A stretch of 64,000 bases of DNA. Source: Obrimoposthia wandeli. Lineage: Eukaryota. Location of the stretch: NCBI GenBank assembly GCA_977020255.1, contig CDROCS010000007.1:62001-126000 (forward strand). The letters are read 5' to 3'. Under the pieces are notes generated by a model. That model saw only the letters and a list, made by a program, of their open reading frames with translations. It was not told the DNA's origin and searched no databases. A program made the position numbers and the translations under genes. Every line of letters begins with the position of its first letter. Positions within the stretch are counted from its first letter, which is position 1. Positions 16,370 to 19,225 of the stretch are shown piece by piece.

Positions 16370-19225
16370 ATGGATGATGTGATGAACCGAATACTAGAAG
16401 CGCATGAGACACCAATAGAGAAAACGTGTAACGCACAACCTATGACTGGTCACATAGAAGCAGCAAGAAATGCTAAGAGTATGGAAAATGTGAAAAAGAT
16501 AATTAGTGAAGCTAAAGAGACGCTGAATCAACCGTTAGACGAAGCGAGTTTAGCTCCAGAAGTTTTGGCAAAACTACAAACAATTAAAGTGCACGGATTG
16601 GAAGAAGTGCGAGCAGAATTGGTTAAACATAGTCATGATAACTTGATTTACAAAGATGTATCACGAGGATTATTGAAAGGATATGGTCGTTACGTACAGA
16701 GATCAAATCAAAAAGGAACGATGAAAATTTCACTTCGATTAATTTCCAGACAGATTATGCATGAAAAACTTAATGTATACCAAACAATGAAAACTATTCG
16801 AAAAACGTTGGCCGAGAAACTCGAAATAGATGGAATGAATATGTTGTTCCATTATAAAGGAAGATCACTAGATGATGAAGACGTACCAGTCGAGTGCAGA
16901 GATCCGATAGGAAACGAATTAGAGGAAAAGATTGATGTCATCACTGTAGGACGTCAGGAGTTAGTAGATAATGAAGGATTGGCTGAGATATTAAATTCTG
17001 CGTTAGATATGATAACAACGCCTATAGAAATTCTAGACAGTTCAAGCGAAAGCGGAAATAATGATGTAGCTGAAGCTTGGAACAAGACGTCCACACCTGA
17101 ACCGAACGTAGCTGAACCACAGGACGTGGAATCAAAAAATGAGTTGACGAATCTGGTAGTTGAAGTACCACCAGAGCAAGAGATCATTCAAACCGGACAA
17201 GATGAAGTCACAGATGTAGCTAACCAAGTGAGACAAAACGAAAACGTAACCGAACTAGTTGGAGAAGACGAAATCTCCGAGATTGTAGATTTAGATTCAC
17301 CAATTTGGCATGCCGCATACAGAGATAGACAAGCAGAGCAGACGATGCGACAAAACGAGGAGATTGGTCATGTAGCAGGACCAAGTCAAGAGGTACAGTA
17401 TAATGATGAACCGTATGATCCAGGTGAGAATCAAACTGAGTATCAATATTTTCGAAGAGGACCTGGAAGACCTAGAAAGGACGGAAGTATATTACGAAAT
17501 GTTCTAACTGCACCTCAAACTGATGAAGAGAGACATCAAGGCATTGGGCAGTTAGCAGCGTCATTAGAGCAGTATAGTGCAGAGCGAAATGAAGATATTA
17601 GAGGTGATATGAATTCGGAAGCTCCAAGTAGTAAAAATATACTTACGGGAATTCTCAGGCAAGTAAAGCCGAAGTTGTTCAAAATGTACAAAGATGAAAC
17701 AACCGATATAACAGACAATTTGACTAGAGCAGTTAGATCACAAATGTCTGCAATGAAGAGAATGACTGCGAATCATGGATACCATGTATCAATAGATAGA
17801 TTTTACGATGGTGAAGTTTTAGCGAGATTATGTGGAAACCAGACTACAAATAAAAAGCTAATCACAGCGATTACATATCTATGTTTCCAATTGACGGAAA
17901 GAACGAGCCAACCTCACGAAGTCAAACAAAGAATAAATAAAGCGATGTATTTGATCGAGAACGTATTGCAACGACGAATCGACGAAAACGGAGGTTTGGC
18001 AAAATTAAGTGACTACGCTAAAACCATTGTGGAAATAAATGAAGACGATGATGAACAGTGTCATGAGAATCGTCAAAGAGAAAATAAACAATACCATCCG
18101 AAAGAAAGAAACAATCAACCAAATATGTCCACAACGATGATGATGATGATGTTAGTAATGTTTATGGGAATGCAACAGGCATCAGCGTTAGTAGCATACG
18201 ACTGTAATATTAGATTTCACTATCCAAACAACGGAAGTGGACCGACAAAATGTAATAATTCAATAAATACGATATACCATATGGGAAATATAAATGGAGC
18301 ACAGCGACCAGCAGCTATCATTAGAGTAAATAATTTAAAAGTAAAAGCCTTAATTGATACAGGTGCTGTAGCTTCGATAGTAAGTGAAGATTGTTTGACA
18401 GAGGAACAGAAACAAATAATGGCAGAACCAGATGAATTCTTGGTATCAGTCAATGGAGACCCTGTAAAAGTAACGGGAATATTACCATGTACATTTATAA
18501 TTGGACGTAATACGATCACTATACCAGTTAGAATCATGAAAGAATGTCCTGAACCTACAATTTTAGGAATGGATGTACTATCACAACTCAAAGGGATAAG
18601 TATTGATTTACAAGATCCAAGATTGAAAGATAGTACATCAAACAGACAAATAAACCAAATTGAAGTAATTATAGAAAATCCTATAAAAATCGGTAAAAGA
18701 TCGCAATTTCTCATTCAAGGTCACACATTATCAGAAGATAAAGGACCAGTTGTGTTCAAACCATCACGAGATTTCATAGAGAAATATGAATTACCAATTG
18801 TGAGTACAGTATGTCTGATCGAAAACCACAAAATACCAGTTAGACTGATGAATGCAACCAACAATGACATCCTGTTATACAGAGGAATGAGGTTGGGAAA
18901 GATAGCACAGATGGAGAATCCCACTGTGTGTGCTATGAAACTCGATAAAGATACGAATGATTACGAAGAAATAGTAATCCAATCAGAAAGACTGACAACC
19001 AGAGAAAAGAAACAATTACTCGATCTAATACATAAATTTCCAAAAGTAATTGCCAAAAATCCGTGTGACATAGGAGAAACACCTGTCATAAAACCCACAA
19101 TACCGCTGACAGAAGACAAAGTAGTCAGAAGAAGACCATATCGAGTACCATTACAGTTACAAGATGAAGTCAAAAGTCAGATTGAAGATATGTCTAGAAC
19201 AGGAGTAATTAGACCGAATGTTTAA
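16370..19225 (+). CDS. Retroelement polyprotein segment: Ubl domain, acidic region, AT-hook, Bcl-2-like helical domain, signal-peptide-like segment, aspartic protease, RT N-terminus
   Basis: 951-aa ORF with [12 protein letters not shown] (protease) and RRPYRVP (RT start); other domains recognised by eye; contiguous with gag in copy 2. Confidence 0.85.
   Translation: [951 protein letters not shown]

Follow-up and report, generated by a model that had tools for sequence, protein, structure and literature searches.

Burro/GYPSM1 elements of planarians (Jurka 2007 and Grohme et al. 2018, via PMC6431247 section 7) carry an ORF of about 4,900-5,100 residues with Gag-CCHC, a Ubi2/SUMO-like domain, a BCL2-like motif, and an Env lying in frame between the BCL2-like motif and the protease, as well as dUTPase-like, BIR, and ankyrin domains (PMC6431247 section 7). 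That section names Grohme et al. (2018) as the source of the BCL2-like motif, and the Ubi/SUMO-like and dUTPase-like assignments were made with HHpred. According to the accessible part of PMC8532177, Burro1 is under PIWI control, and its BIR-RING module is reported, second-hand in the accessible part of PMC13465017, to protect planarian stem cells. The literature searched contained no test of the Burro BCL2-like domain, which the 2026 Burro1 paper or Grohme 2018 and its supplements may cover.

Here, we analyzed a window of 64,000 nucleotides (the whole stretch of DNA, 64 kb), for which the original prediction had placed a Bcl-2-like domain between gag and protease and had called such a domain unusual inside a retrotransposon polyprotein. 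Since the same order is already in print for Burro (PMC6431247 section 7), the arrangement is neither unusual nor new. The features of the window are as follows.

15139..16382, + strand: gag remnant, 5'-truncated, with a single CCHC knuckle (divided from the frame of the domain by a stop and frameshifts)
16712..16954, + strand: weak ubiquitin/SUMO-like segment (PF00240, E 0.042; alignment with the relative P0010, E 0.002)
17453..17479, + strand: GRP motif, common to the relatives P0005/P0007 (sequence)
17627..18019, + strand: diverged Bcl-2-like helical domain in ORF1, copy 1 (translation, HHalign, Pfam, AlphaFold, Foldseek)
17813..17878, + strand: BH1-like segment, with T-N-K-K at the NWGR positions (HHalign register, column counts)
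17966..17998, + strand: BH2-like segment, last position Leu in the window copy (aligned copies)
18128..18205, + strand: hydrophobic segment and first Env residues, likely an Env signal peptide or signal anchor
18206, no strand: junction of an in-frame deletion of ~3.67 kb (sibling comparison)
18302..18595, + strand: aspartyl protease, the second of the element (PF13975, E 4.8e-8)
18923..21328, + strand: RT, RNase H, and integrase, broken (Pfam, tblastn)
35221..35613, + strand: copy 2 of the domain, within a local duplication (sequence comparison)
41317..42518, + strand: the element's dual-specificity phosphatase domains, disrupted in the window (Pfam, sibling match)
45540..46786, + strand: pair of RING-H2 ORFs close to the element's 3' end (Pfam, present in siblings)

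The 131 residues quoted in the original prediction are the translation of 17627-18019 (+) as given there. They lie within a 976-codon open frame (16295-19225), and comparison of the window ORFs with Pfam placed a CCHC knuckle upstream and an aspartyl protease downstream of them. The GRP motif, which we take to be AT-hook-like, gave no Pfam match. The second copy, predicted at about 35220-35615, was found at 35221-35613 with 98% identity to the first. It belongs to a local duplication of ~14.8 kb (4945-19703 against 22624-37349, identity 98.6-99.7%) and is therefore not independent of copy 1; a stop codon stands just upstream of it and the same deletion junction downstream. Both window copies are defective, being 5'-truncated and carrying a stop and frameshifts upstream of the domain that cut it off from gag, so that its production from these copies is unlikely. 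The pol region of copy 1 has 10 stops in the main tblastn segment and a gap of ~390 bases in the integrase region.

In four of the six sibling stretches, the sequences flanking window position 18206 are separated by about 3.66-3.68 kb, and the remaining two end before the far side is reached. The 3.67 kb missing from the window copies encodes an Env (a viral-type fusion glycoprotein), a first protease, two BIRs, and a RING. In the siblings, Env is in frame in the same ORF (PF24664, E 1e-86 to 1e-96), the BIRs were matched in all three scanned (PF00653, E 1e-15 to 3e-11), and the RING (PF13920) in two of these three. The L048 and L051 ORFs carry zf-CCHC together with Env. The Retrotrans_gag match of the element was weak (E 0.006). 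Among 28 non-window loci picked by the domain, the junction motif was readable in 21, all of which run on into Env; pooling all loci, 65 of 67 distinct contexts continue into Env, a count in which 30 loci had been chosen for Env. Of 40 places scored, from 652 candidates, just the two in the window matched the junction sequence in full, and contigs of two public sequencing runs, both from one sample, have loose ends at 18206. The deletion keeps the reading frame and is private to the window locus, and it is because of this deletion that the domain sits directly between gag and protease. The predicted order thus holds for the window, but the siblings carry Env, a protease, BIRs, and a RING in that place, their full order being Gag-CCHC, Ubl (weak), Bcl-2-like domain, hydrophobic segment, Env, protease, BIR-BIR-RING, protease, and RT-RH-IN.

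In the sibling L047 (2154-8462, -), BIR-BIR-RING lies between two aspartyl proteases that are ~27% identical to each other and look as if they were arranged to excise a free IAP. The relative P0007 has seven protease-like stretches.

The domain is highly abundant, with 10,747 candidate places in the 1.35-Gb genome, and 150 of the 150 scored were 94-100% identical. Both siblings that were examined for size (2/2) have LTR-like repeats of roughly 1.9-2.5 kb that enclose about 24 kb, and their similarity to the window reaches as far as 47271; the phosphatase ORF and the RING-H2 ORFs found there at 41-47 kb are therefore parts of the element. The element has the gypsy order PR-RT-RH-IN. No dUTPase-like match was found by a Pfam scan of the post-protease piece, and the pieces scanned gave no MATH, ankyrin, or dUTPase match. 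By its domain order, set against the published description, the element appears to be of Burro type. In 30 loci picked by Env score, dN/dS was 0.13 for the domain and 0.06-0.19 for six neighbouring parts; as the domain value is no lower than that of its flanks, it indicates an active polyprotein and no special constraint on the domain.

Tandem dual-specificity phosphatase domains lie 3' of the integrase both in the window (41317-42518) and in L084 (2410-4992), and are absent from the Burro domain list of PMC6431247 section 7. The HCxxGxSRS loop of the first (PF00782, E 1.4e-35) is intact in two siblings, and the second is without the Cys. Further element ORFs at 42618-44827 have membrane-like segments and no clear Pfam family, the weak match being Orthoreo_P10 (E 0.004-0.015). 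Elsewhere in the window, a 457-codon ORF without a Pfam match was found at 55997-57370 (-), tandem arrays at 200-760, 47851-48485, and 48820-50145, and a family of ~195-base repeats, probably a small DNA transposon, in direct and inverted orientation at 14536-15130, 32135-32743, and 51666-54598. A multi-copy cox1 in the assembly uses AAA for Asn and ATA for Ile, which fits table 9 (flatworms or echinoderms). The assembly also holds many bacterial-type cox1 genes (G000, L119-L124) and a second animal-type cox1 with another codon reading (L124), which suggests contaminant, symbiont, or prey contigs.

Taken alone, the window copy gave no PF00452 match in Pfam and no Bcl-2 match in the PDB, and 49 of 2000 shuffles reached its score against a host Bcl-2 profile; the median score of the family members was reached by 17 of 2000. 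For the family, 49 distinct stop-free copies were aligned, 18 of the 67 loci being dropped. PF00452 was the most frequent family match among them, found at E<=0.1 in 38 copies (best 6.5e-4, profile positions 6-100) and missing at that threshold in 11; none of the 49 reached the curated cut-off (best 20.6 bits vs 31.4). With a mean column identity of 97%, the rows are nearly the same sequence and amount to about one observation, and unrelated families match many of them as well (DUF7446 in 28/49). A genome-wide PF00452 search returned 16 matches, of which 15 look like host-type Bcl-2 and the last is the element copy L046.

HHalign of the family against nine host Bcl-2 pieces gave P=5e-4 and a probability of 31% over BH1-BH2; in a local rerun, none of 300 column shuffles reached the observed 21.1, the top shuffle scoring 21.08. 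The BH1 and BH2 register of the original prediction is also the register chosen by HHalign. In this register, the N-W-G-R positions of BH1 are T-N-K-K in 48 of the 49 rows. The last Trp of the BH2 motif W-x-x-x-x-G-G-W is retained in 44 of 49 rows and was seen at 61 of 66 readable loci, but is absent from the window copies, and the first Trp is absent in all 49 rows. No donor could be singled out among the nine host pieces, and searching the PDB with the family profile brought up no Bcl-2 chain at E<=10. The Bcl-2 signal is thus weak yet recurrent, modestly beyond chance for the family and barely so for the window copy alone. The predicted identity survives as likely Bcl-2 ancestry at the level of the family, judged from sequence and in agreement with the published Burro motif, whereas the window copy itself stands near chance.

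The AlphaFold models contained eight predicted helices, at a pLDDT of 44 from the single sequence and 48 with the alignment. In Foldseek they produced no match at E<=0.001; the best (E 0.28) was to a Bcl-2/Bcl-xL chimaera. Of 46 matches listed, 38 were Bcl-2-family by title, none of them significant, in a PDB where Bcl-2 entries are numerous. With a TM of about 0.3 and an rmsd of about 14 A, these matches show the helix pattern and residues, not the packing. The proposed fold check therefore yielded helices and mostly Bcl-2 titles, but neither a confident model nor a significant match.

The hydrophobic stretch that the original prediction noted downstream does exist. It begins 40 codons past the domain and stops a few residues short of the Env sequence, with a peak KD of 2.15 over 11 residues and 1.55 over 19. 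A counterpart precedes Env at the same place in the ENA relatives P0005/P0007 and P0010, in which no Bcl-2-like domain was detected. This argues against a Bcl-2 tail and points, by comparison of these sequences, most likely to the signal peptide of Env.

We are fairly confident that ORF1 of a giant Ty3/gypsy element of Burro type holds a strongly diverged, likely host-derived Bcl-2-family domain just upstream of what is likely the signal peptide of the in-frame Env, and that both window copies are defective derivatives left by a deletion. Where the element is complete, insertion of the hydrophobic segment into the ER membrane would place Env in the lumen and keep the Bcl-2-like domain facing the cytosol. 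If signal peptidase and the element's own proteases then cut the polyprotein, a membrane-tethered Bcl-2-like protein would be left, which could retain the hydrophobic segment as its anchor. The most likely job of such a protein, to which we would give about an even chance, may be to dampen host cell death in element-expressing cells together with the BIR-RING module, though probably not via the canonical BH3 groove. In Bcl-2, loss of the NWGR Gly blocks binding. The degenerate NWGR of BH1 makes canonical BH3 binding doubtful here. According to the accessible part of PMC7719400, the Arg of this motif makes the hallmark contact with BH3 peptides.

Rather less probable, yet to be taken seriously, is that the Bcl-2 fold was retained while the role in apoptosis was lost, the domain serving as a folded spacer before the Env signal or as a signalling or scaffold adaptor. 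Several poxviral Bcl-2-fold proteins act as such adaptors. T-N-K-K in nearly every row, with a bulky residue in place of the groove Gly, would suit this reading, as would the finding of no such domain in P0007 and P0010 and the fact that, of the element copies, the most divergent gives the highest score against Bcl-2, as though further drift had taken place in the amplified lineage. However, the Lys at the Arg position preserves the charge, viral homologues with an altered NWGR still bind BH3 peptides (accessible part of PMC7719400), and a BIR-RING module, whose Burro1 counterpart is the one reported to protect stem cells (second-hand, accessible part of PMC13465017), is located in the same ORF. 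A chance resemblance to Bcl-2, in a polyprotein domain that is all-helical and has a Gly-Gly-Trp motif but is unrelated, is improbable: every sequence score is below threshold, there is no significant fold match, and the top column shuffle nearly equals the observed score, but Pfam, HHalign, and Foldseek ranks agree on one family over profile positions 6-100, and independent work places the BCL2-like motif of Burro at precisely this point (PMC6431247 section 7). As for the deleted form, its in-frame joint, present twice in the window, could be taken for a functional non-autonomous variant fusing Bcl-2, membrane anchor, and protease. We consider this extremely improbable, given that the two places are one local duplication and the only full junction matches, that both copies are frameshifted upstream with pol ruined, that the two sequencing runs are explicable without such a joint, and that no copies scattered elsewhere were seen to have this junction together with LTRs of their own.

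Beyond the preferred reading of a diverged host-derived domain, complete elements might use a single polyprotein to shut off both arms of host apoptosis, with an Env-signal-anchored Bcl-2-fold protein binding Bak/Bax-type proteins via a rebuilt, NWGR-less groove and a BIR-BIR-RING inhibitor excised between the two proteases. We regard this as unlikely; if true, it would represent a working Bcl-2 homologue in a reverse-transcribing element.

Compared with cellular Bcl-2 (PF00452, the host's own included), the element domain shares the helix pattern, the BH1/BH2 spacing, and the Gly-Gly-Trp of BH2, but it scores below the curated cut-off, has lost NWGR, is part of a polyprotein, and is followed by a hydrophobic segment that goes with Env. 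Like the viral Bcl-2 proteins of large dsDNA viruses (F1L, ORFV125, KsBcl-2), as described in the accessible parts of PMC11209288 and PMC7719400, it is a diverged Bcl-2-like domain with altered BH motifs in a selfish element; the viral proteins come from stand-alone genes, their folds solved and their functions tested, whereas the domain here is known from sequence and poor models. If it works, a retroelement carries the same two anti-death strategies as large DNA viruses. The ENA polyproteins P0005/P0007 and P0006/P0010 share the in-frame Env before the protease and the same hydrophobic segment before Env, at identities of 34-42% for Env and 58-59% for RT-RH, but no Bcl-2-like, BIR, or RING match was detected in them and, as annotated, they start after gag. 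The closest likeness is to Burro, with one huge ORF1, Gag-CCHC, a weakly matched Ubi/SUMO-like domain, a BCL2-like domain, an in-frame Env before the protease, PR-RT-RH-IN, BIR, and thousands of copies. As a discovery the domain amounts to little, since it and its position are already known from the published Burro elements. What differs in this family is size and cargo: about 24 kb compared with >30 kb in S. mediterranea, one CCHC knuckle seen compared with two or three published, two proteases flanking BIR-BIR-RING, and, with MATH, ankyrin, and dUTPase unmatched in the pieces scanned, a dual-specificity phosphatase after the integrase.
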